Below, in pieces: positions 3,182-42,848 of a stretch of DNA of 51,464 nt (position 1 is its first letter; the number at the start of each line of letters is the position of its first letter). Source of the stretch: Alphaproteobacteria bacterium (lineage in GTDB: Bacteria; Pseudomonadota; Alphaproteobacteria; UBA2136; JAPKEQ01); assembly GCA_028821995.1 (NCBI GenBank), contig JAPKEQ010000002.1, forward strand, positions 1 through 51,464, read 5' to 3'. A program made the position numbers and the translations under genes. The notes beneath the pieces were generated by a model. The model saw only the letters and a program-made list of their open reading frames with translations, had not been told where the DNA came from and searched no databases.

Positions 3182-4450
3182 CTATTTACGCTCGTAGATT
3201 GGAAATCTATCACATAGCTCTTTCACTTCAAAACGTATACGGCTTTCAAGCTCTTTATCACCGTCCTCGTGTTGCTTTAATCCCCTAAGCACATCACCAA
3301 TCCAACGGCCAATCATCTCAAATTCTTTTTCCTTAAAACCGCGCGTTGTACCGGCAGGAGATCCAAGGCGAATACCACTGGTTACAAACGGGCTTTCCGT
3401 ATCAAAAGGGATTGAATTTTTATTACAAGTGAGCCCAGCACGCTCAAGCGCTGCTTCTGCTGCTTTACCAGTTAGGCCCATGGGGCGTAAATCAACAAGA
3501 ATAAGGTGTGTATCTGTTCCGCCTGTTACAATGCGCACCCCCTCTTCTTCCAAAGTTTTTGCCATAACTTTAGCATTAGCAACAACCTGTTTACCGTAAA
3601 CTTTAAAGCTTGGCTCCAAGGCTTCTTTAAATGCAACAGCCTTCGCTGAAATCACATGCATCAAAGGCCCACCCTGCAGCCCAGGAAATACCGCACTATT
3701 AATTTTCTTTGCTATATCTTCATCATTTGTAAGCACAATACCACCGCGCGGACCGCGCAGCGTTTTATGCGTTGTAGATGTAACAACATCTGCATATGGG
3801 AAAGGACTTGGATGTTCTCCTGCCGCCACAAGGCCTGCAAAGTGGGCCATATCCACCATAAGTATCGCGCCAACTTTATCGCAAACATCTCTAAAGCGCT
3901 TAAAGTCTATTGTACGAGAATAAGCACTTCCGCCTGCGATGATGATTTTGGGTTGAAACTCAACTGCCATTTTTTCAAGTTCGTCATAATCAATAATCTC
4001 ATCTTCGCCAAGGCCGTAACTATGAGCCTCAAACCATTTCCCAGATTGGTTAACTTTAGAACCATGCGTTAAGTGACCGCCATGATCAAGGCGCATACCA
4101 AGAAAACAGTCTCCAGGCTTCATAATGGCGCTAAATACGGCCTGATTAGCTTGGGAGCCACTATGAGGCTGCACATTGGCATACTTACAGCCAAACAACT
4201 GTGTAATACGCTCAATAGCAAGCTTCTCAGCTACGTCTACATATTCGCACCCACCGTAGTAGCGCTTATCTGGGTAGCCTTCTGCATACTTATTGGTCAT
4301 CACGCCGCCCTGTGCTTGCATAACAGCAAGAGAGGTCATGTTCTCTGAAGCAATAAGCTCAATTTGAGAGTGTTGGCGCTCATACTCATCTTCAATAGCG
4401 CTAAAAATATCTGGATCAACTGTGCTTAAAGGACTTGTGTATAAATTCAT
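3182..4450 (-). CDS. glyA: serine hydroxymethyltransferase
   Basis: 422 aa. Contains IELIASEN, the [15 protein letters not shown]-lysine motif, and VTSGIRLG. Confidence 0.97.
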
Positions 4451-33912: not shown

Positions 33913-35013
33913 TTATTCAGATGTCGCACAATCCTGATACAGTACCAGCATGACAGCAACGTTGTCCTGTTCTGTGATTTTCACCACATCAGCACACCCA
34001 TCAAAATCCACATCCATGGTATCGACCTTCTTGGCTTTAGCAAGCAGATCAACTTTTGGAAGGGCATTTTCAGAGCGTTTATAGGCCTCATATACGCCGT
34101 CACCTGAAAGGATGTAACGGGTTTTCATGACCTTGCCGCTGGCATAATACAGAACCATATCGCCGATGCCGTCACCGTTATAGTCTTCGGTATCAAAGTT
34201 GCGGATACTCATACCAGAGGTAAAGCCTTCCATGTAAACCTGCTCGTAAGCAAGCTGTCCTTGATCTGCCATATCAGCGCGCAGGCCAACGATGCCATTG
34301 GATGGGTTTTCCTGAGTATAAATGATGCGAACATCAATATCATACCCACTGTCCCAAGCCAAAATCACGTCATCAGTGCCATTGCCGTCCATGTCAGCCC
34401 AGTCCATTTTGAGCACATCATAGATGGACTCTTCATACGGATAGAATACACCTGTTGCCTGATGCATCATCACCGTCATAAAGACATCAAAGTCCTGAAA
34501 ATCATTGGCATTAGATGCCGCCGAAGTGCTCAGGTCATGTGCTGTAAACGTCATATCACCGTTATTGACGGCAATTGCAACGTCAAGCGTGTCATCGCCC
34601 CATTTTTCATTATACTGGGTGAAAACAATATCGGCATAACCGTCACCGTTTGTGTCAGCAGTATCCAGCTTGATAGCCGAAGAGAACCAGGAAAACGTAA
34701 TGGGTAGATTCACCCGTACAGGCGTTTCTTCAAAACCAAGGCGGCCGTCCATGTTCTTGCCAAAGAATACATCCATTTGATAGTCCTGGCCAAACCAGGC
34801 TTCATCATTGACCTGAACCATATCTTCAAAGCCATCGCCGTTAAAGTCAGCAAAGCCGCGTTTTTTGGAGTTACGCAGGCGTTCAGGGCCCATGGGCAGA
34901 ATTTCTGCCATTTGATTGCGAGGCTCATAAGCCTCTTTGTAACCTGCCTCATAGTCAGTGTTGCAGGCAGAAAGGGTCAAGGGCAAAGCGCCCAAGAGAA
35001 GAAATTTACGCAT
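33913..35013 (-). CDS. FG-GAP/VCBS-repeat lipoprotein
   Basis: The ATG at 35013 follows GGAGG. MRKFLLLGALPLTLSAC contains a lipobox. Five Ca-binding-type loops are present: DFNGDGFEDMV, DTNGDGYADIV, DMDGNGTDDVI, DYNGDGIGDMV and DVDFDGCADVV. Confidence 0.8.
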   Translation of the reverse strand: MRKFLLLGALPLTLSACNTDYEAGYKEAYEPRNQMAEILPMGPERLRNSKKRGFADFNGDGFEDMVQVNDEAWFGQDYQMDVFFGKNMDGRLGFEETPVRVNLPITFSWFSSAIKLDTADTNGDGYADIVFTQYNEKWGDDTLDVAIAVNNGDMTFTAHDLSTSAASNANDFQDFDVFMTVMMHQATGVFYPYEESIYDVLKMDWADMDGNGTDDVILAWDSGYDIDVRIIYTQENPSNGIVGLRADMADQGQLAYEQVYMEGFTSGMSIRNFDTEDYNGDGIGDMVLYYASGKVMKTRYILSGDGVYEAYKRSENALPKVDLLAKAKKVDTMDVDFDGCADVVKITEQDNVAVMLVLYQDCATSE

Positions 35014-35106
35014 AAGAACCTCCATGCGAAAGAAAAGAGAAAGAAGTTACATTCGTAACTCTTATATGGGGGTAAACAAGGTGATTTTCAAGGCTTTAAA
35101 AGAAAA

Positions 35107-35517: not shown

Positions 35518-35544
35518 AAAAAAAGGCGCTATTTCTAGCGCCTT
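35518..35544 (-). terminator. intrinsic terminator after rsmI
   Basis: On the minus strand: aaggcgct-agaaat-agcgcctt followed by TTTTTTT. Confidence 0.8.
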
Positions 35545-35588: not shown

Positions 35589-36416
35589 TCACGATTTTAA
35601 AGTTTCAATTTTTTTATAAAGCTCCGCACCGCTCAGGGGCGTTTTTTCCTTAAGCATATCGCGAATTTTTTTCACCTTATGGCCATCACCAAGAAGAGAA
35701 AGAATTTCTGATTCTAGCCCTTCATCTGTAAGAAGGTGGCTTCCTTCTACTGCGCCATCAATCACCACAACAAATTCGCCAAGCACTTCTTTGCGATTCT
35801 CTAAAGATGCCTTCACCTCACTGAGCGCGCCTGTTAAATGCTCCTCATAAGTTTTGGTAAGCTCGCGCCCTACAAAGCAATTTCTGTCCCCAAGAAGGCG
35901 CTCAACATCTGCAAGCGTTTCTAAAATGCGGTGCGGCGCCTCGTAGATCACAAGGCTAAATGGCAGCTCTTTTACAGTCCCTACAAGCGTTTCTCTTGCC
36001 TTATTTTGACGAGGCAAAAATCCAAGGAAGGTAAAACGATCAGAAGAAAGCCCCGAAAGCGCGACACCCATTGTCAGCGCAGATGTGCCACCGGAGGCTT
36101 TCACATCAATACCCGCCGCACGCGCAGCACGTACAAGCAAAAACCCAGGGTCGCTAATACATGGCATGCCCGCATCGCTCACATAAGCAACGGTTTTGCC
36201 TTCCATGAGAAGATTTACAATCCCCTTTACGGATGAATGCTCATTATGTGCCCCGTGAGAAAGCAGCTTATCAGGCGTAATATCATGAATACCAAAAAGA
36301 CGAAGCGCTTTGCGTGTATCTTCTGCTGCAATCACATCCGCGGACTTTAAAATGTCTACAGCGTGGGGCGTCATGTCCCCTTCTCTGCCAATAGGTACGC
36401 CAACAAGCCAAAGCAT
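35589..36416 (-). CDS. rsmI: 16S rRNA (cytidine1402-2'-O)-methyltransferase
   Basis: The track ORF reaches 36482. The ATG at 36416 (MLWLVGVPIGREGDMTPHAVDILKSADVIAAEDTR) overlaps the upstream stop as TAATG. The fold is tetrapyrrole-methylase type and includes SDAGMPCISDPG. Confidence 0.88.
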   Translation of the reverse strand: MLWLVGVPIGREGDMTPHAVDILKSADVIAAEDTRKALRLFGIHDITPDKLLSHGAHNEHSSVKGIVNLLMEGKTVAYVSDAGMPCISDPGFLLVRAARAAGIDVKASGGTSALTMGVALSGLSSDRFTFLGFLPRQNKARETLVGTVKELPFSLVIYEAPHRILETLADVERLLGDRNCFVGRELTKTYEEHLTGALSEVKASLENRKEVLGEFVVVIDGAVEGSHLLTDEGLESEILSLLGDGHKVKKIRDMLKEKTPLSGAELYKKIETLKS

Positions 36417-37075
36417 TACAGTACCTCTACCTTCCAGTAAACTGTTGCGCGGCCGCTGCCTTTTGTAAGACGAGACGCCCAAGTACTGGCCACATCTACT
36501 TTTTCGCCAGAGGCAAAAAATTGATGCTCATGCCATTTAAAGCCGGCCTTTTCCCATAAAGGTTTTACATGGCTTTCAAGTGTTTCGGCTGTAATCTCTG
36601 GCAAGTGATTGGTGCGAAGTGTTTCACTATCTTGCAAAGCAAAAAGGTTAACGTAAACATCACCAATCGCTTTGTCTTTTAGGCATTTTTTAATACCGTT
36701 TAAAAAATCTTCATCTGCAAGAACAGTGACGTCAAGCAGGCTTCCCCATGGAAAATTAATGCTAAAAGTATCAGCAACTGGCTGGGTAAAATCTTCTGGC
36801 AGATCAAGCGCATTTGCGCACACAAAGCGCACATTAGACGCGCCGCCCTTAGCAGGTTTTTTAGCAGCTTTTGTAGCGCCAACAGCAAGGCTGTCCCGGT
36901 CTGCATCAAGGCCAATGACAAGCTCATTTTCTATTTTTCGGGCACGACGAAGAGCAAACATGCCGTCCCCTGTTCCAAAGTCAATATGAACTTTAGGGTG
37001 CGACTTGCACAATGAGAGAAAGTCGTCTGATGAAATATTCAGACGACTTTTCTTGCTTTCAATGATTTCAACCAA
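36416..37075 (-). CDS. class I SAM-dependent methyltransferase resembling the KamB/NpmA 16S rRNA (adenine1408-N1)-methyltransferase family
   Basis: 219 aa. The blocks VHIDFGTGDG, VIGLDAD, KAAKKPAKGGASNV, FSINFPWGSLL and STWASRL line up in order with the KamB and NpmA sequences as I recall them. Confidence 0.6.
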   Translation of the reverse strand: MVEIIESKKSRLNISSDDFLSLCKSHPKVHIDFGTGDGMFALRRARKIENELVIGLDADRDSLAVGATKAAKKPAKGGASNVRFVCANALDLPEDFTQPVADTFSINFPWGSLLDVTVLADEDFLNGIKKCLKDKAIGDVYVNLFALQDSETLRTNHLPEITAETLESHVKPLWEKAGFKWHEHQFFASGEKVDVASTWASRLTKGSGRATVYWKVEVL

Positions 37076-37086
37076 TGAAGTAACCC

Positions 37087-38472
37087 TTAGCTATGCAGCG
37101 CGCGGCCATCCACAGCAAGGGCTGCTTCTTTTGTCGCTTCGCTCATTGTTGGGTGGGCATGCACGCTACGAGCAATATCTTCAGCTGATGCACTAAATTC
37201 CATTGCAACAGCGGCTTCCGCAATCATTTCAGATGCGTTTTTACCAATAATATGCACGCCAAGCACTCTGTCTGTTTCTTTATCAGCAATAATTTTTACA
37301 AATCCGTCCGCTGCGCCCATAGCAAGTGCGCGCCCATTGGCCTGAAAAGGAAACTTACCGACATTAACAGCACGGCCACCTTCTTTCGCTTCTTCTTCTG
37401 TTTTACCAACGCCAGCAATTTCAGGTTCAGTGTAAACAACCCAAGGAATGCAATCGTAGTTCACATGTCCAGCAATACCAGCAATACGCTCTACGCAAGC
37501 AACGCCTTCTTCTTCGCCTTTATGGGCAAGCATAGGGCCTTTAACACAGTCTCCAATAGCGTAAACGCCTTTAACATTTGTTTGACCGTGATGACCTGTT
37601 TCAATCACGCCACGCTCGTCGTAAGCAACACCAGCTTTATCTAGTGTTAAACTTTCTGTAAAGGCACGACGGCCAACAGCTACAAGCACCTTATCAGCAT
37701 CTAGAATTTCTTCTTTACCGCCAATATCAATTTTAACTTTGGCTTTAGCGCCTTTTACATCAACGCTTACAACTTTAGCGCCAAGCTTAAATTTAAGACC
37801 TTGCTTCTTGAAGAGTTTCTCAGATTCTTTACCAAGATCTTTATCCATCACAGCAACAGGACGTTCTGCAATATCTACAAGCGTAACATCACAACCAAGG
37901 CGTCCCCATACAGAGCCCATTTCAAGACCAATAACACCGGCGCCAATCACAACCATTTTGGCTGGCACTTTATCGAGCGCAAGAGCATCTGTGCTATCAA
38001 TCACTACCTTGTGGTCATATTTTGCAAAAGGCAGTTCAATAGGCGTAGAGCCTGCTGCTAGAAGAATATGTTCAGCTTTAAGTGTAGCCTTGCCATCTAT
38101 AGCAACAACACCCTCACCCTCAAGAGAGCCAAAACCATTAATCACATCAACCTTGTTCTTCTTCATAAGAAAAGCAACACCGCCCGTAAGCTTGCCTACA
38201 ACCTCATCTTTGCGCGCAATCATCTTCTTGATGTCAATTTTAACGCCCGATGCGCTAATACCGTGACCTGCAAGCTCATGCTTAGCATCATGATATTTCT
38301 CAGATGAGTTAAGAAGTGCCTTTGAAGGGATACAGCCCACGTTTAAACATGTACCACCCAATGTTTTATCTTTTTCAATAATGGCTGTTTTAAAACCAAG
38401 CTGGCCAGCGCGGATAGCCGCAACATAGCCCGCAGGGCCAGAACCGATAACAACAAGATCATATTGTTTCAT
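37087..38472 (-). CDS. lpdA: dihydrolipoyl dehydrogenase (E3)
   Basis: 461 aa. Contains GSGPAGYVAAIRA, the redox disulfide GGTCLNVGCIPSK, and HAHPTMSE. Confidence 0.95.
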   Translation of the reverse strand: MKQYDLVVIGSGPAGYVAAIRAGQLGFKTAIIEKDKTLGGTCLNVGCIPSKALLNSSEKYHDAKHELAGHGISASGVKIDIKKMIARKDEVVGKLTGGVAFLMKKNKVDVINGFGSLEGEGVVAIDGKATLKAEHILLAAGSTPIELPFAKYDHKVVIDSTDALALDKVPAKMVVIGAGVIGLEMGSVWGRLGCDVTLVDIAERPVAVMDKDLGKESEKLFKKQGLKFKLGAKVVSVDVKGAKAKVKIDIGGKEEILDADKVLVAVGRRAFTESLTLDKAGVAYDERGVIETGHHGQTNVKGVYAIGDCVKGPMLAHKGEEEGVACVERIAGIAGHVNYDCIPWVVYTEPEIAGVGKTEEEAKEGGRAVNVGKFPFQANGRALAMGAADGFVKIIADKETDRVLGVHIIGKNASEMIAEAAVAMEFSASAEDIARSVHAHPTMSEATKEAALAVDGRALHS

Positions 38473-38497
38473 TATTTTTTCCTATTATTTATAAATT

Positions 38498-38884
38498 TTA
38501 AAAAATCAGCGCCAGTGCAAAAGCAAACATTGGAATAAATGTAGCAAACATTGCAACTTGGCGAAAACGTATTGTTTTATACTTTTCTTCAAATATAACA
38601 ATGCTATAAGCATGACCAACACGACCTAGAATAAATATTCCAGCCAGCATCGTAAACCAGTGCTCTGCAAGCTCTCCCTGAAGCTCTACAAGAGCCATAA
38701 GAACAAGAACAAGGGGCGTATACTCAGCAAAATTTCCATGTGCGCGAACTGTTCTTCGAATCAATCCTTCAGGCACATCAAGAGTCTGCCCCTCTTTCAT
38801 GCGGTACTTGATCACAAGGATAGAAAGTACCGTATAAAGAAGAGCAAGCAGACCTGCAGTAAGGGATGTAATCTCTAAGTTCAT
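38498..38884 (-). CDS. MAPEG-family membrane protein
   Basis: 128 aa with about 4 TM helices. RAHGNFAEYTPLVLVL matches the MAPEG N-x2-E-x3-P-type signature. Confidence 0.65.
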   Translation of the reverse strand: MNLEITSLTAGLLALLYTVLSILVIKYRMKEGQTLDVPEGLIRRTVRAHGNFAEYTPLVLVLMALVELQGELAEHWFTMLAGIFILGRVGHAYSIVIFEEKYKTIRFRQVAMFATFIPMFAFALALIF

Positions 38885-38887
38885 ATA

Positions 38888-40096
38888 TTAAACTCCAATG
38901 AGAAGACGGCCAGGATCTTCAAGTACTTCTTTAATATGCTTCACAAAGCTGACGGCTTCACGGCCATCAACAATACGGTGATCATATGTCATCGCAAGGT
39001 ACATCATTGGGCGGATTTCAACTTTGCCATCAACGGCTACAGGTCGCTGCTGAATAGAGTGCATACCCAAAATACCAACTTGTGGGTAGTTCAGAATCGG
39101 CATGCTCATCATCGAGCCAAACACGCCGCCATTTGTAATGGTGAATGTACCGCCAGCCATATCATCAGGCATAAGCTTCCCATCGCGCGCTTTTGCGCCA
39201 AAACCTGCAATAGATTTTTCAATCTCAGCAAAGCTCATTTGATCCGCGTCACGAATAACAGGTACAACAAGGCCGCGCTCTGTGCTCACAGCAATACCCA
39301 TGTTGTAGTAGTTTTTGTAAACAATTTCGTCGCCATCAATTTCAGCGTTAAGTGCAGGCCAAGCTTTAAGAGCATCAATCGCCGCTTTAGTAAAGAAGCT
39401 CATAAAGCCGAGCTTAATATCGTTCTTCTTCACAAATTGATCTTGGTAAGACTTACGAAGTTCCATAACCTTTGTTAAATCAACTTCATTGTAAGTTGTA
39501 AGCATAGCTGCTGTGTTTTGAGACGTTTTAAGGCGCCCCGCAATCACCTGACGAAGCTTGCTCATCTTCACACGCTCTTCACGCTCAGCAGTATTTTGCT
39601 TCGCTACAGGAGCCGGCGTTGAGGCTGGAGCTTTAACAGCGCCGCCTTTCATAAATTTTTGTACATCTTCTTTGGTAAGGCGGCCCCCTTTGCCTGTACC
39701 GGCAATATCAGCAGCATTAAGGCTGTTTTCTTCTACCATGCGGCGCACAGCAGGAGAAAGGTCATCTGGTAAGGATACAGCAGCGGTTGCAGGTGCTGCA
39801 GTTTTTGGCGCTTCTGCAGGAGCCTCTTCCGCAGCAGCAGGTGTTGCGCCACCTTCAGCACTCTCATCAATTTCGCCCATGCTATCACCAGGAGAGACGG
39901 TATCACCCTCACCCGTCATAATTTTCATCAACTTACCAGCTTGAGGCGCATTCACCTCAAGGTTTACTTTATCTGTTTCAAGCTCAGCAATAAGCTCATC
40001 TTGCTGAACAAACTCACCTTCAGCTTTAAGCCATTTTGCGACGGTTGCCTCGCTGATGCTTTCGCCCATAGTTGGGGCTTCAATTTTTACAGTCAT
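38888..40096 (-). CDS. sucB: 2-oxoglutarate dehydrogenase E2, dihydrolipoyllysine-residue succinyltransferase
   Basis: 402 aa. It has a lipoyl domain ([11 protein letters not shown]), an Ala/Pro linker, and the catalytic motif [11 protein letters not shown]. Confidence 0.95.
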
Positions 40097-40124
40097 TGGA
40101 ATTGTTCCTTATTATTTTGTAAAA

Positions 40125-42848
40125 CTAGTTTTTAAATACTTGGTTTAAAATGTCTTGCTGTTGTGCTGCATGCACTTTACTAGAGCCGACCGCCGGACTA
40201 GAAGAAGCAACGCGTCCAGCATAGCTTAGCTTACCACCTGTCAGCGGAGCAAGGTGTTCTAGCATGTACCACCAAGAACCTTGGTTCTTTGGTTCTTCTT
40301 GTGCCCAAACAACGTCAGCATTTTTATACGCTTTCAGCTGTTCTTTAATGTCCTTGTCAGCAAATGGGTAAAGCTCTTCTACGCGCACAATTGCCACATC
40401 TTTACGCTTTAGCTTTTCGCGTTCAGCTGCAAGGTCGTAGTAAACTTTACCTGTGCAAAGCACCAGACGTTTTACATCTTTTGCTTTTACAGTGTCATCG
40501 CCAATCACCTTGCGGAACTCGCCTTTAGTCAGCTCTGATACAGGAGAAACAGCCGCAGGGTTACGAAGCAAGCTCTTTGGCGTCATAATCACAAGCGGTT
40601 TACGCACGGTGCGGTGCATTTGACGACGCAGCACATGGAAAATTTGCGCTGGCGTTGAAAGATTACAAACGCTCCAGTTATTCTGAGCGCTCATCTGCAG
40701 GAAACGTTCCATACGTGCACTTGAGTGCTCAGGTCCTTGACCTTCAAAACCATGAGGTAGAAGAAGTACAAGTCCGCTGTAACGGCGCCACTTTGTTTCA
40801 CTTGAGCTGACAAACTGATCAATCATCATTTGCGCGCCGTTTACGAAATCACCAAACTGCGCTTCCCAAATGGTTAACGTTTTTGGATCAGCAAGAGAGT
40901 AACCAAATTCAAAGCCCATCACAGCAAGTTCGCTAAGCGCACTGTTAATAGCATTAAACTGAGAGCCGTCTTTGCTCATCGCCTGCATAGATTTATGGTA
41001 CTCACCTGTTTTTTGATCAAACACGTAAGCATGACGGTGAGTAAATGTACCACGACGCACATCTTGTCCAGTCAAACGAACACTATAACCTTCATTGAGA
41101 AGCGAGCCATAAGCCGCAACTTCTGCCGTTCCCCAATCTAGATTATCTTTACCAAGCATCATTTGCTCACGGCGATCGAGCAATTTACCAATTTTACTAT
41201 TGACGCTAAAACCTTTAGGGAGTGCAGTAAATGTATTTGCGATACTTTTTGTCATCGCAGTAGAAATTGATGTTTTGGGTTCTTTAGATACTTCACTTTG
41301 GAATTTCTGCCAAACATCGCTACCAAACATTTCAGGCTTCACTTTTGCGCCTTTTTGGTTAGCTTCTTCATAGGCAGCATCAAGTTGAGATTTATAATCC
41401 TGCTCAATCATTGCGAGGTCGCCCTCATCAATGGCCTGTGTTTCAAGAAGTTTTGCACGGTAAATCTCGTAAGGAGATTTATGCGCTTTAATTGCCGTAT
41501 ACATCACAGGATTTGTGAACATCGGGTCATCGCCCTCGTTGTGTCCAAACTTACGGTAGCACACAAGATCTACAAAAACATCCTTACCAAAGGTATTACG
41601 GTAAGCCGTTGCAAGCTCCATGACAAAGTTACACGCCTCGACGTCGTCGCCATTCACGTGGAAGATAGGCACTTGCAGCATGCGCGCAACATCTGTGCAG
41701 TACTGGCCGCTAAATGTTTCATGCTTACTGGCTGTAAAACCAATTTGGTTGTTAATAATAATATGCATGGTTCCGCCATTGGTGAAACCTTCAAGGTTTG
41801 CAAGGTTAAGCGTTTCAGCCACAATACCTTGCCCTGCAAAAGCACTATCTCCGTGAATCGTTACAGGCATAACGCGTTTTTGACCTTCAGCACCAATTTT
41901 ATCTTGTTTAGCGCGCGCGCTTCCGCACACAACAGGGTTTACCTGCTCAAGGTGAGATGGATTGTTATGAAGAGACACATGAATATCGTGTCCGCTACGT
42001 GTTTTCACATCATAAGATTTACCCATATGGTACTTCACATCACCCATGGCAAAATCATCTTCCATCACAAGCTTTTCGTTAAAAGCAGCCATAATTTCAG
42101 CAAGTGGCTTATCAAGCGTATTGGCAAGAACGTTCAAACGTCCACGGTGCGCCATGCCCATAATCACTTCAGACACGCCAGAATCACCAGCTACATCCAT
42201 CATTGTATCAAGCATAGGAATAAGCGCTTCCCCGCCCTCTACAGAAAAGCGTTTCATACCCACAAATTTAGTATGAAGGAATTTTTCAAACTGACTGGAA
42301 ACAACAAGCCCGCGAAACATACGCTGCTTTTGCTCTTTGGAATAGCTTGGCATGTTGTGCGTTTTTTCCATACGCTCAGCAAGCCATTTACGCTCTTCGC
42401 GTTCAGATGTTAGCGCGTACTGAACACCAATACGGTTACAGTAAGTTGTTTTAAGTGCCTCAACAAGGTCACGAAGTTTACCTTCACCAGAAGACAAAAG
42501 ACCGTCACTATCAACAGTTTGATTCAAATCTGCATCTGTCAGGTTAAATGCGGCAAGGCTAAGGTCTGCACCAAGCTCAGGCGCATCAGAAAGAGGATCT
42601 AAATGTGCGTATTTATGACCATGATTACGGTACGCGTTAATCATACGTGACACACGGTTTTGGAGTGAGCCTTCAACCTTACTGGTAGCGCCTGGCATTT
42701 TTTTAGATATAATATCTTGGCCAGTTTTAACGCTTTCAAAGAAAGTGCGCCACTCATGTGAAACTGAATTTGGGTCTTGTTGAAATTGCTCGAAAATAGA
42801 TTCTACATAGTCCGAATTGGACGCATACATAGTGCTGAAACGATCCAC
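40125..42848 (-). CDS. sucA: 2-oxoglutarate dehydrogenase E1 component
   Basis: 907 aa. Contains HRGRLNVL, the ThDP motif HGDSAFAGQG, and LLLPHGFEGQGPEHSS. Confidence 0.96.
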   Translation of the reverse strand: MDRFSTMYASNSDYVESIFEQFQQDPNSVSHEWRTFFESVKTGQDIISKKMPGATSKVEGSLQNRVSRMINAYRNHGHKYAHLDPLSDAPELGADLSLAAFNLTDADLNQTVDSDGLLSSGEGKLRDLVEALKTTYCNRIGVQYALTSEREERKWLAERMEKTHNMPSYSKEQKQRMFRGLVVSSQFEKFLHTKFVGMKRFSVEGGEALIPMLDTMMDVAGDSGVSEVIMGMAHRGRLNVLANTLDKPLAEIMAAFNEKLVMEDDFAMGDVKYHMGKSYDVKTRSGHDIHVSLHNNPSHLEQVNPVVCGSARAKQDKIGAEGQKRVMPVTIHGDSAFAGQGIVAETLNLANLEGFTNGGTMHIIINNQIGFTASKHETFSGQYCTDVARMLQVPIFHVNGDDVEACNFVMELATAYRNTFGKDVFVDLVCYRKFGHNEGDDPMFTNPVMYTAIKAHKSPYEIYRAKLLETQAIDEGDLAMIEQDYKSQLDAAYEEANQKGAKVKPEMFGSDVWQKFQSEVSKEPKTSISTAMTKSIANTFTALPKGFSVNSKIGKLLDRREQMMLGKDNLDWGTAEVAAYGSLLNEGYSVRLTGQDVRRGTFTHRHAYVFDQKTGEYHKSMQAMSKDGSQFNAINSALSELAVMGFEFGYSLADPKTLTIWEAQFGDFVNGAQMMIDQFVSSSETKWRRYSGLVLLLPHGFEGQGPEHSSARMERFLQMSAQNNWSVCNLSTPAQIFHVLRRQMHRTVRKPLVIMTPKSLLRNPAAVSPVSELTKGEFRKVIGDDTVKAKDVKRLVLCTGKVYYDLAAEREKLKRKDVAIVRVEELYPFADKDIKEQLKAYKNADVVWAQEEPKNQGSWWYMLEHLAPLTGGKLSYAGRVASSSPAVGSSKVHAAQQQDILNQVFKN

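Follow-up and report, generated by a model that had tools for sequence, protein, structure and literature searches.

A predicted A1408 16S rRNA methyltransferase of the NpmA/Kam family coupled to rsmI in an uncultured lineage of the Pseudomonadota

The methyltransferase gene and its operon

We have analyzed a 51,464-nucleotide (nt) stretch of DNA from an alphaproteobacterial genome (assembly GCA_028821995.1, contig JAPKEQ010000002.1, positions 1 to 51,464; the whole stretch is referred to here as the window) that carries a gene for a predicted methyltransferase of the NpmA/Kam family next to rsmI. The methyltransferase open reading frame (ORF) lies on the minus strand at 36416..37075, starts with TTG and, according to the ORF list and Pfam, encodes a class I S-adenosylmethionine (SAM)-dependent enzyme of 219 residues. 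Directly downstream on the same strand is rsmI (35589..36416), coding for the 275-residue 16S rRNA (cytidine1402-2'-O)-methyltransferase. The product of this second gene scores 206.9 bits against the TIGR00096 model, above the equivalog cut-off of 167.9, across model positions 1-270 of 275, and its PDB matches, 5hw4 and 9pzg, are both RsmI.

The methyltransferase stop codon (TAA, 36418-36416) and the rsmI start codon (ATG, 36416-36414) overlap by one base on the minus strand to give the sequence TAATG at 36414..36418, and this junction is also found in the related loci L001, L002 and L092. A Shine-Dalgarno-like GAGG (36424..36427, minus strand) is embedded in the 3' end of the methyltransferase gene, 7 nt before the rsmI ATG. 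The one-base overlap, the internal GAGG and the near-abutment of the two genes in relatives are the sequence features of a translationally coupled pair.

Upstream of the methyltransferase is a co-directional array of four genes (37087..42848, minus strand) in the order sucA (40125-42848), sucB (38888-40096), MAPEG (38498-38884) and lpdA (37087-38472), with intergenic gaps of 3-28 nt. The last three were identified by Pfam in the window, and sucA through Pfam confirmation in the syntenic locus L002; the same gene order is present in L002 and L092. The lpdA stop codon (37087-37089) is separated from the methyltransferase TTG by an 11 nt spacer, GGGTTACTTCA (37076..37086, minus strand), and the stop codon and spacer together read TAAGGG, a weak Shine-Dalgarno-like element. 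L001, L002 and L092, the three loci most closely related to the window, likewise have a TTG start preceded by TAAGG(G/A)G. An earlier sequence-only reading of this DNA had put the methyltransferase 11 nt behind lpdA at the tail of a sucA-sucB-MAPEG-lpdA array, with its stop overlapping the start of rsmI in TAATG, and all of these assignments, including that of rsmI itself, are borne out by our analysis.

We found no terminator-like sites between lpdA and the methyltransferase on the coding strand. A consensus scan for an internal promoter between these two genes returned 8 sites, compared with 11.9 in shuffled sequences, and thus lends no support to one. A terminator-like hairpin detected by a hairpin scan 45 nt past the rsmI stop (35523..35544, minus strand), with a 9-bp stem followed by a T run, probably marks the end of the operon. 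We predict a sucAB-MAPEG-lpdA transcription unit that has the methyltransferase gene at its end, with translational coupling of this gene to rsmI.

The methyltransferase mRNA has a further structural feature of its own. A fold scan identified a 13-bp perfect hairpin, AAAAGUCGUCUGA...UCAGACGACUUUC (37018..37051, minus strand), that spans codons 9-20 and has a local folding z-score of -3.0. Compensatory changes (U-A to A-U and A-U to G-C) preserve the hairpin in L001, L002 and L092 despite an altered peptide sequence, and members of the clade that are more distant lack it. The hairpin may affect mRNA stability, processing or translation control.

Two other features of the neighborhood are worth recording. 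A 2-oxoglutarate dehydrogenase operon is an unusual place for a MAPEG membrane-protein gene such as the one that begins 3 nt after sucB and precedes lpdA; the insertion of this gene is kept in L002 and L092 and absent in L091. Downstream of the operon, the ORF at 33913-35025 (minus strand) encodes a predicted lipoprotein of 370 residues with FG-GAP/VCBS-like calcium-binding repeats. This slot is not conserved, and L002 and L092 have only small ORFs there.

Family membership, fold and key residues of the window protein

Judged by profile, sequence and predicted-structure comparisons, the window protein is a divergent new member of a known enzyme family. It matches the Pfam profile NpmA (PF24675) over residues 9-214 with 172 bits (E = 1.4e-50), the gathering score being 60. 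The four best NCBIfam matches are all models of A1408 methyltransferases, namely NpmB (105.3 bits, cut-off 460), KamB (102.9 bits, cut-off 350), WarA (82.8 bits, cut-off 305) and NpmA (81 bits, cut-off 470). Since the cut-offs for npmA, npmB, kamB and warA, the named resistance genes, lie far above these scores, the protein is to be regarded as a member of the family and not as an allele of any of these genes. A sequence search of the PDB gave ten significant matches (E 6e-30 to 5e-16), every one of them an enzyme that forms N1-methyladenosine at position 1408 (m1A1408): NpmB1, Kmr, NpmA, CacKam, KamB and UncKam. These are followed by two weak and unrelated matches with E >= 0.013. On these scores the similarity to A1408 methyltransferases is far beyond chance.

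An AlphaFold2 model built from an alignment of 14 clade sequences has a mean predicted local distance difference test score (pLDDT) of 87.9 and a predicted template modeling score of 0.87. The predicted structure has a class I SAM fold with the N-terminal beta-hairpin and the extended beta5/6 and beta6/7 linkers that typify the family. When the model is compared with the PDB using Foldseek, the top 19 matches are all m1A1408 methyltransferases (NpmA, NpmB1, KamB, Kmr, CacKam and UncKam) with template modeling (TM) scores of 0.73-0.88, and the folds that come next, those of TrmB-like and small-molecule methyltransferases, score no higher than 0.66.

The sequence-only reading had singled out five ordered blocks in the protein and had aligned them with NpmA and KamB. 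All five are present in the order proposed. They comprise SAM motif I (VHIDFGTGDG, residues 29-38; 36962..36991, minus strand), a VIGLDAD block (residues 53-59), the basic beta2/3 linker KAAKKPAKGGASNVRF (residues 69-84; 36824..36871, minus strand), which alignment to NpmA marks as a putative 30S docking surface, motif IV (FSINFPWGSLL, residues 104-114; 36734..36766, minus strand), and the beta6/7 linker sequence ASTWASRL (residues 196-203; 36467..36490, minus strand). The NpmA motifs given there agree with the PDB alignment, and the likeness to KamB is seen at the level of the model NF000363 (residues 9-209, 102.9 bits). A search against resistance-gene models, which that reading had suggested, returned A1408 methyltransferase models as the best matches, as it had anticipated, but at scores that do not reach the cut-offs for named genes, and the best Pfam match is likewise to the NpmA family and not to an unrelated methyltransferase family. 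The reading had also pointed to the two tryptophans that stack on A1408 in NpmA, and these are conserved as W110 and W199.

We assessed residue conservation from an alignment with 126 family sequences (127 including the window protein). Alignment equates window residues D32, G34, G36, D57, K69, K72 and K73 with NpmA D30, G32, G34, D55, K67, K70 and K71, and P109, W110, S197, W199, R202 and R209 with NpmA P106, W107, S195, W197, R200 and R207. R209 lies six residues beyond the ASTWASRL sequence. The features expected for SAM binding are present in the form of a DxGxGxG motif I (D32, G34, G36, G38) and the acidic D57 after beta2, and those expected for 30S docking in the form of K69, K72, K73, the KKPAKGG loop and R209; NpmA K66 is replaced by T68. 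The tryptophan at the W107 position is invariant (127/127 sequences) and that at the W197 position nearly so (125/127). In NpmA, W107 stacks the target base, and replacing D30, W107 or W197 with alanine abolishes resistance (PMC3061052). R207 of NpmA holds the phosphate of the flipped A1408 and stabilizes the flipped base, and docking on the 30S subunit is through the basic beta2/3 linker (PMC4705659).

Conservation, inheritance and linkage to rsmI and DUF371

The pairing of the methyltransferase with rsmI is not peculiar to the window. In every clade member with a readable downstream flank, rsmI is directly downstream on the same strand, giving 13 distinct loci (the window, L001, L002, L092/93, L003, L004, L005, L006, L007, L010, L011, L015 and L094/95). 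The distance from the methyltransferase stop to the rsmI start ranges from -11 to +6 nt, being -8 to +6 nt across 12 loci and -11 nt in L094. This arrangement is maintained as methyltransferase identity to the window protein falls from 97% to 36%. The upstream neighbor differs by locus and may be lpdA, aroA, an alpha/beta-hydrolase gene or an SSF transporter gene; because rsmI stays constant while the upstream genes vary, it is the methyltransferase-rsmI pair that constitutes the conserved unit. On the downstream side, rsmI is often accompanied by the same block of small ORFs, gcv genes and a nucleoside deoxyribosyltransferase-like gene. The methyltransferase and RsmI show comparable levels of divergence; with close pairs excluded, the Pearson correlation is 0.51 and the Spearman correlation is not significant. 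This moderate correlation is compatible with co-inheritance of the two proteins but is not proof of it.

Linkage extends beyond the clade. We scanned 80 metagenome loci, picked only by family similarity (28-45% identity), using custom hidden Markov models for RsmI and DUF371. Eight of the 80 have an adjacent rsmI, in a downstream, upstream or divergent position, and a further 10 have an adjacent gene for DUF371 (PF04027), usually directly downstream. The resulting 18/80 is a lower bound, as many contigs are too short to show neighbors, and the expected chance adjacency to a single-copy gene is well below one locus. Pfam confirms DUF371 in five of those 10 loci, as well as in L008. DUF371 genes lie next to the family gene in L013 (4179-4601), L014, L017, L018, L026, L030, L032 and L053, the stand-alone form being placed directly downstream. 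Elsewhere beside family members the domain is fused to the N-terminus of RsmI (L004, 7650-8915; L009, 2551-3831; L024) or, in L008 (3391-4434), to a protein whose C-terminus has an RsgA-like zinc finger. In three high-GC loci (L022, 4076-5404; L063, 890-2185; L082, 1368-2534; all minus strand) DUF371 precedes a degenerate RsmI-like C-terminal region of about 250 residues, which contains RsmI-like strings and a helix-turn-helix-like tail but gives no match to the TP_methylase model. These three fusion genes are convergent to the NpmA-family gene, and L022 additionally has a canonical rsmI upstream.

DUF371 has solved but uncharacterised structures (3CBN, 7Y7N), and our literature search for the domain returned prefix matches only, such as DUF3715. 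No DUF371 was found in the window. Neighbor-joining trees, which carry no support values, place the RsmI- or DUF371-linked loci on several branches, with Kmr and NpmA nested among these. The association of the family with helix 44 biogenesis factors thus looks old and recurrent, and the pattern suggests that DUF371 is itself a factor of the 30S decoding center or of helix 44. In the literature that we searched, we found no description of an NpmA-family/rsmI operon or of the wider RsmI/DUF371 linkage. The conserved coupled methyltransferase-rsmI operon, the RsmI/DUF371 linkage and the strength of the purifying selection described below are what is new here; the existence of a Kam homologue is in itself unsurprising.

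When 1.84 billion cluster representatives were searched exhaustively with HMMER, 661 relatives came up at E <= 1e-3 but only 8 at E <= 1e-30, and the clade to which the window protein belongs is thus small and distinct. In our trees the rsmI-linked methyltransferases of the window type form one clade apart from NpmA, NpmB1 and Kmr, with Kmr in the group sister to it. The closest public genome, at 97% identity, is a metagenome-assembled genome labelled 'uncultured Magnetococcales bacterium', and further relatives come from TARA and other metagenomes. A peptide-pattern scan of genome contigs based on the single window sequence recovered one locus; such a scan reaches close relatives only and says nothing on absence elsewhere.

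The methyltransferase is under strong purifying selection. The ratio of nonsynonymous to synonymous substitution rates (dN/dS) against L001 is 0.034 (dS 0.35), and values overall are 0.03-0.06, with dS saturated for the more distant pairs. The methyltransferase dN/dS is on a level with the low value for lpdA and is below that for rsmI, and between the window and L092 the methyltransferase is 87% identical and RsmI 75%. The GC content of the gene (44.2%) is close to that of the window (43.8%). No transposase, integrase or other mobile-element gene was found within about 8 kb, as the sequence-only reading had remarked, and no biosynthetic-cluster or aminoglycoside-producer context was found at the locus. 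The low dN/dS, host-like GC content and lack of nearby mobile genes together speak against recent acquisition. The best reading is that the gene belongs to the vertically inherited core of an uncultured Pseudomonadota lineage and is not a recently acquired resistance cassette. The suggestion in the earlier reading of a housekeeping-style methylation, or else a latent resistance determinant, is strengthened by the 13 rsmI-paired loci and by a dN/dS of about 0.03.

The RsmI partner provides a mechanistic context for this pairing. Unwinding of helix 44 by RsmI begins with the sequestration of A1408 in a pocket that T19, P20 and D92 form (PMC13037946). In E. coli, NpmA leaves methylation of C1402 by RsmI and RsmH unblocked but blocks RsmF at C1407 (PMC3923132). 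NpmA and RsmI both need the assembled 30S subunit and dock on similar rRNA surfaces. The pairing makes mechanistic sense given this shared substrate and surface, the A1408 pocket of RsmI, and the compatibility of NpmA with C1402 methylation.

The window RsmI differs from E. coli RsmI (YraL; 5HW4, 9PZG) in its N-terminal motif, which is GVPIGR instead of PTPIGN, and hence has Val (V7) and Arg (R11) at the positions of Thr19 and Asn23 in the A1408/C1407 pocket. Val occupies the Thr19 position in every RsmI encoded immediately downstream of the methyltransferase (L009 has Ala and L024 Met), and the Asn23 to Arg change also occurs in close relatives of the window. A clade of about 46 RsmI clusters (P0155-P0202) carries GVPIG, compared with a near-universal (A/G/P)TPIG. 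The change of Thr19 to Val in the coupled RsmI could be an adaptation to a methylated A1408. We nevertheless discarded the idea of a clean co-variation of this pocket with the methyltransferase, given that Val19 RsmI occurs without an NpmA-like neighbor in the Frankiales contig L090 and also in L091, and that canonical Thr19 RsmI occurs beside family members in L022, L048 and L078. Val19 would then be a lineage trait and is a weak lead only.

Proposed role and comparison with known systems

To our knowledge, N1-methylation of A1408 has been described solely as a mark of aminoglycoside resistance, in antibiotic producers and for a few acquired genes. Taken together, the rsmI-coupled operon and the more widespread RsmI/DUF371 linkage favor the view that this methylation is housekeeping in origin or in role. 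We consider it likely that the window protein is a functional SAM-dependent 16S rRNA m1A1408 methyltransferase of the NpmA/Kam family that is vertically inherited, constitutively co-expressed, housekeeping in style and only incidentally a source of aminoglycoside resistance. By homology to NpmA, the enzyme would use its basic beta2/3 linker to dock on the assembled (mature or late) 30S subunit, capture the flipped-out A1408 of helix 44 between W110 and W199 while R209 holds the phosphate, and methylate N1 to give m1A1408. It would be co-translated with RsmI, which 2'-O-methylates C1402 (Cm1402), so that the coupling would produce together two decoding-center methyltransferases with overlapping 30S surfaces. 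Constitutive modification of the native rRNA would leave the host intrinsically insensitive to kanamycin-, neomycin- and apramycin-type aminoglycosides.

Several observations weigh against this proposal. The window protein is only about 26-30% identical to the characterised enzymes, and its scores of 81-105 bits compare with allele cut-offs of 305-470. The residue corresponding to E88 of NpmA, which contacts the SAM adenine, is a leucine in most of the clade, including the window protein (L90), and in the beta5/6 and beta6/7 linkers NpmA E146, R153, K199 and R205 are changed to D, N, S and S. The beta6/7 linker that bears W199 is modeled at a pLDDT below 50, with low values at residues 198-207. 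That the product is m1A1408, that the enzyme depends on the 30S subunit and that it confers resistance is inferred from homology to the characterised enzymes. A scan of the window for a host 16S rRNA in which to inspect position 1408 found no rRNA, and only two tRNAs. Finally, the locus L091, on a 1.35-Mb metagenome contig, has the order sucA-sucB-lpdA-X-rsmI, in which X is an unrelated ORF of 197 residues (3385-3978) without a Pfam match. We considered whether this ORF is a degenerate methyltransferase and rejected the idea (BLASTP E = 9.9, together with the lack of a Pfam match). L091 indicates that a gene has been replaced or lost at a position that is otherwise conserved, and with the slot filled otherwise, the methyltransferase must be dispensable in some relatives.

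Some of these points are softened by what is known of the family. The E88A, K199A and R205A variants of NpmA are fully active in vivo (PMC3061052), and changes at the same positions therefore do not disqualify the window protein. A flexible, disordered or remodeled beta6/7 linker has been reported for Kmr and CacKam (PMC4705659), with which the low pLDDT at residues 198-207 agrees.

The alternative that best survives keeps the m1A1408 chemistry and changes the reason for it: the gene would be maintained mainly as intrinsic resistance against environmental aminoglycosides, and its placement beside rsmI would only ensure expression during ribosome biogenesis. It draws on the fact that every characterised family member confers aminoglycoside resistance, and on the chromosomal, intrinsic members of non-clinical bacteria (Kmr, CacKam, UncKam and WarA), both already documented (PMC4705659, PMC12406665); the lack of the gene from its slot in L091 is also what would be expected of an accessory trait. 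Such an account is harder to square with an rsmI pairing kept from 36% to 97% identity at a dN/dS of about 0.03, with the lack of any mobile or biosynthetic-cluster context, and with RsmI/DUF371 linkage on several branches of the family, which points to a role in ribosome biogenesis rather than to episodic resistance. We regard it as unlikely to be the main explanation, while recognizing that it and a housekeeping role are not mutually exclusive.

A change of specificity is distinctly less probable. Here the enzyme would act on a different nucleotide of helix 44 or the decoding center, on a pre-30S intermediate or on another RNA, and the classical resistance pattern would not follow. The low identity to the characterised enzymes, the replacement of E88 by leucine and the loss of E146 and R153 in beta5/6 could all be accommodated in this way, as could the Val for Thr19 of the coupled RsmI and the Arg for Asn23 of the window RsmI in the A1408/C1407 pocket. 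Yet both stacking tryptophans, the R207 equivalent and the KKPxKGG docking loop are conserved, and Val19 RsmI also occurs without a neighboring methyltransferase (L090 and L091). Moreover, we know of no family member with another target. That the protein has no catalytic activity and acts instead as a factor in assembly or as a partner of RsmI, as its tight coupling to rsmI, the loss of E88 and the report that Kmr does not bind SAM alone might suggest, is very improbable in the face of an intact motif I, D32, D57 and both tryptophans under strong purifying selection, and of the full activity of NpmA E88A (PMC3061052).

The proposal of a housekeeping A1408 methyltransferase has consequences beyond this locus. 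What we describe is a deep, vertically inherited clade of the A1408-methyltransferase family tied to rsmI, with other branches of the family recurrently linked to rsmI or DUF371, and this pattern suggests that the resistance genes originated in a housekeeping modification of the decoding center. Members of the clade would form an environmental reservoir that antimicrobial-resistance gene callers would miss at allele cut-offs. The operon would offer a natural system in which to study how two A1408-grabbing enzymes are ordered on the same 30S surface during ribosome maturation, and the linkage gives a first functional lead for DUF371. The most far-reaching version of this picture is one that we put forward tentatively and with considerable doubt: m1A1408 would be a constitutive native modification in a lineage of uncultured marine or aquatic Pseudomonadota, the NpmA/Kam family would be at root a ribosome-biogenesis module tied to RsmI and DUF371, DUF371 would be an unrecognized helix 44 or decoding-center factor, and the clinical genes would be escapees from this housekeeping pool.

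Set against the known systems, the window protein shares family-level homology and a predicted fold with KamB of Streptoalloteichus tenebrarius (3MQ2; TM 0.86), but its 102.9 bits to the KamB model are far below the cut-off of 350, and KamB serves an aminoglycoside producer for self-resistance whereas the window locus has no producer context. The comparison with NpmB1 (7EHF; TM 0.82) is similar, with 105.3 bits to the NpmB model falling below the cut-off of 460, as do the 82.8 bits to the model of WarA from Nocardia wallacei below its cut-off of 305. Closest in setting are Kmr of Sorangium cellulosum (4RWZ), CacKam (4X1O) and UncKam (7JLZ), which like the window gene are chromosomal or environmental and non-clinical; Kmr and CacKam also share the flexible beta6/7 linker seen in the window model. 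Coupling to rsmI was not found reported for these three in the searched literature, and the window clade is a separate branch. NpmA from E. coli ARS3 (3MTE, 3P2E, 4OX9) belongs to the same Pfam family, is of similar length and gives a TM score of 0.88 to the predicted fold of the window protein, but is only about 29% identical to it and has residues (E88, E146, R153, K199 and R205) that are replaced in the window protein. NpmA is an acquired gene on mobile DNA, whereas the window gene is chromosomal, has the GC content of its host and adjoins rsmI.

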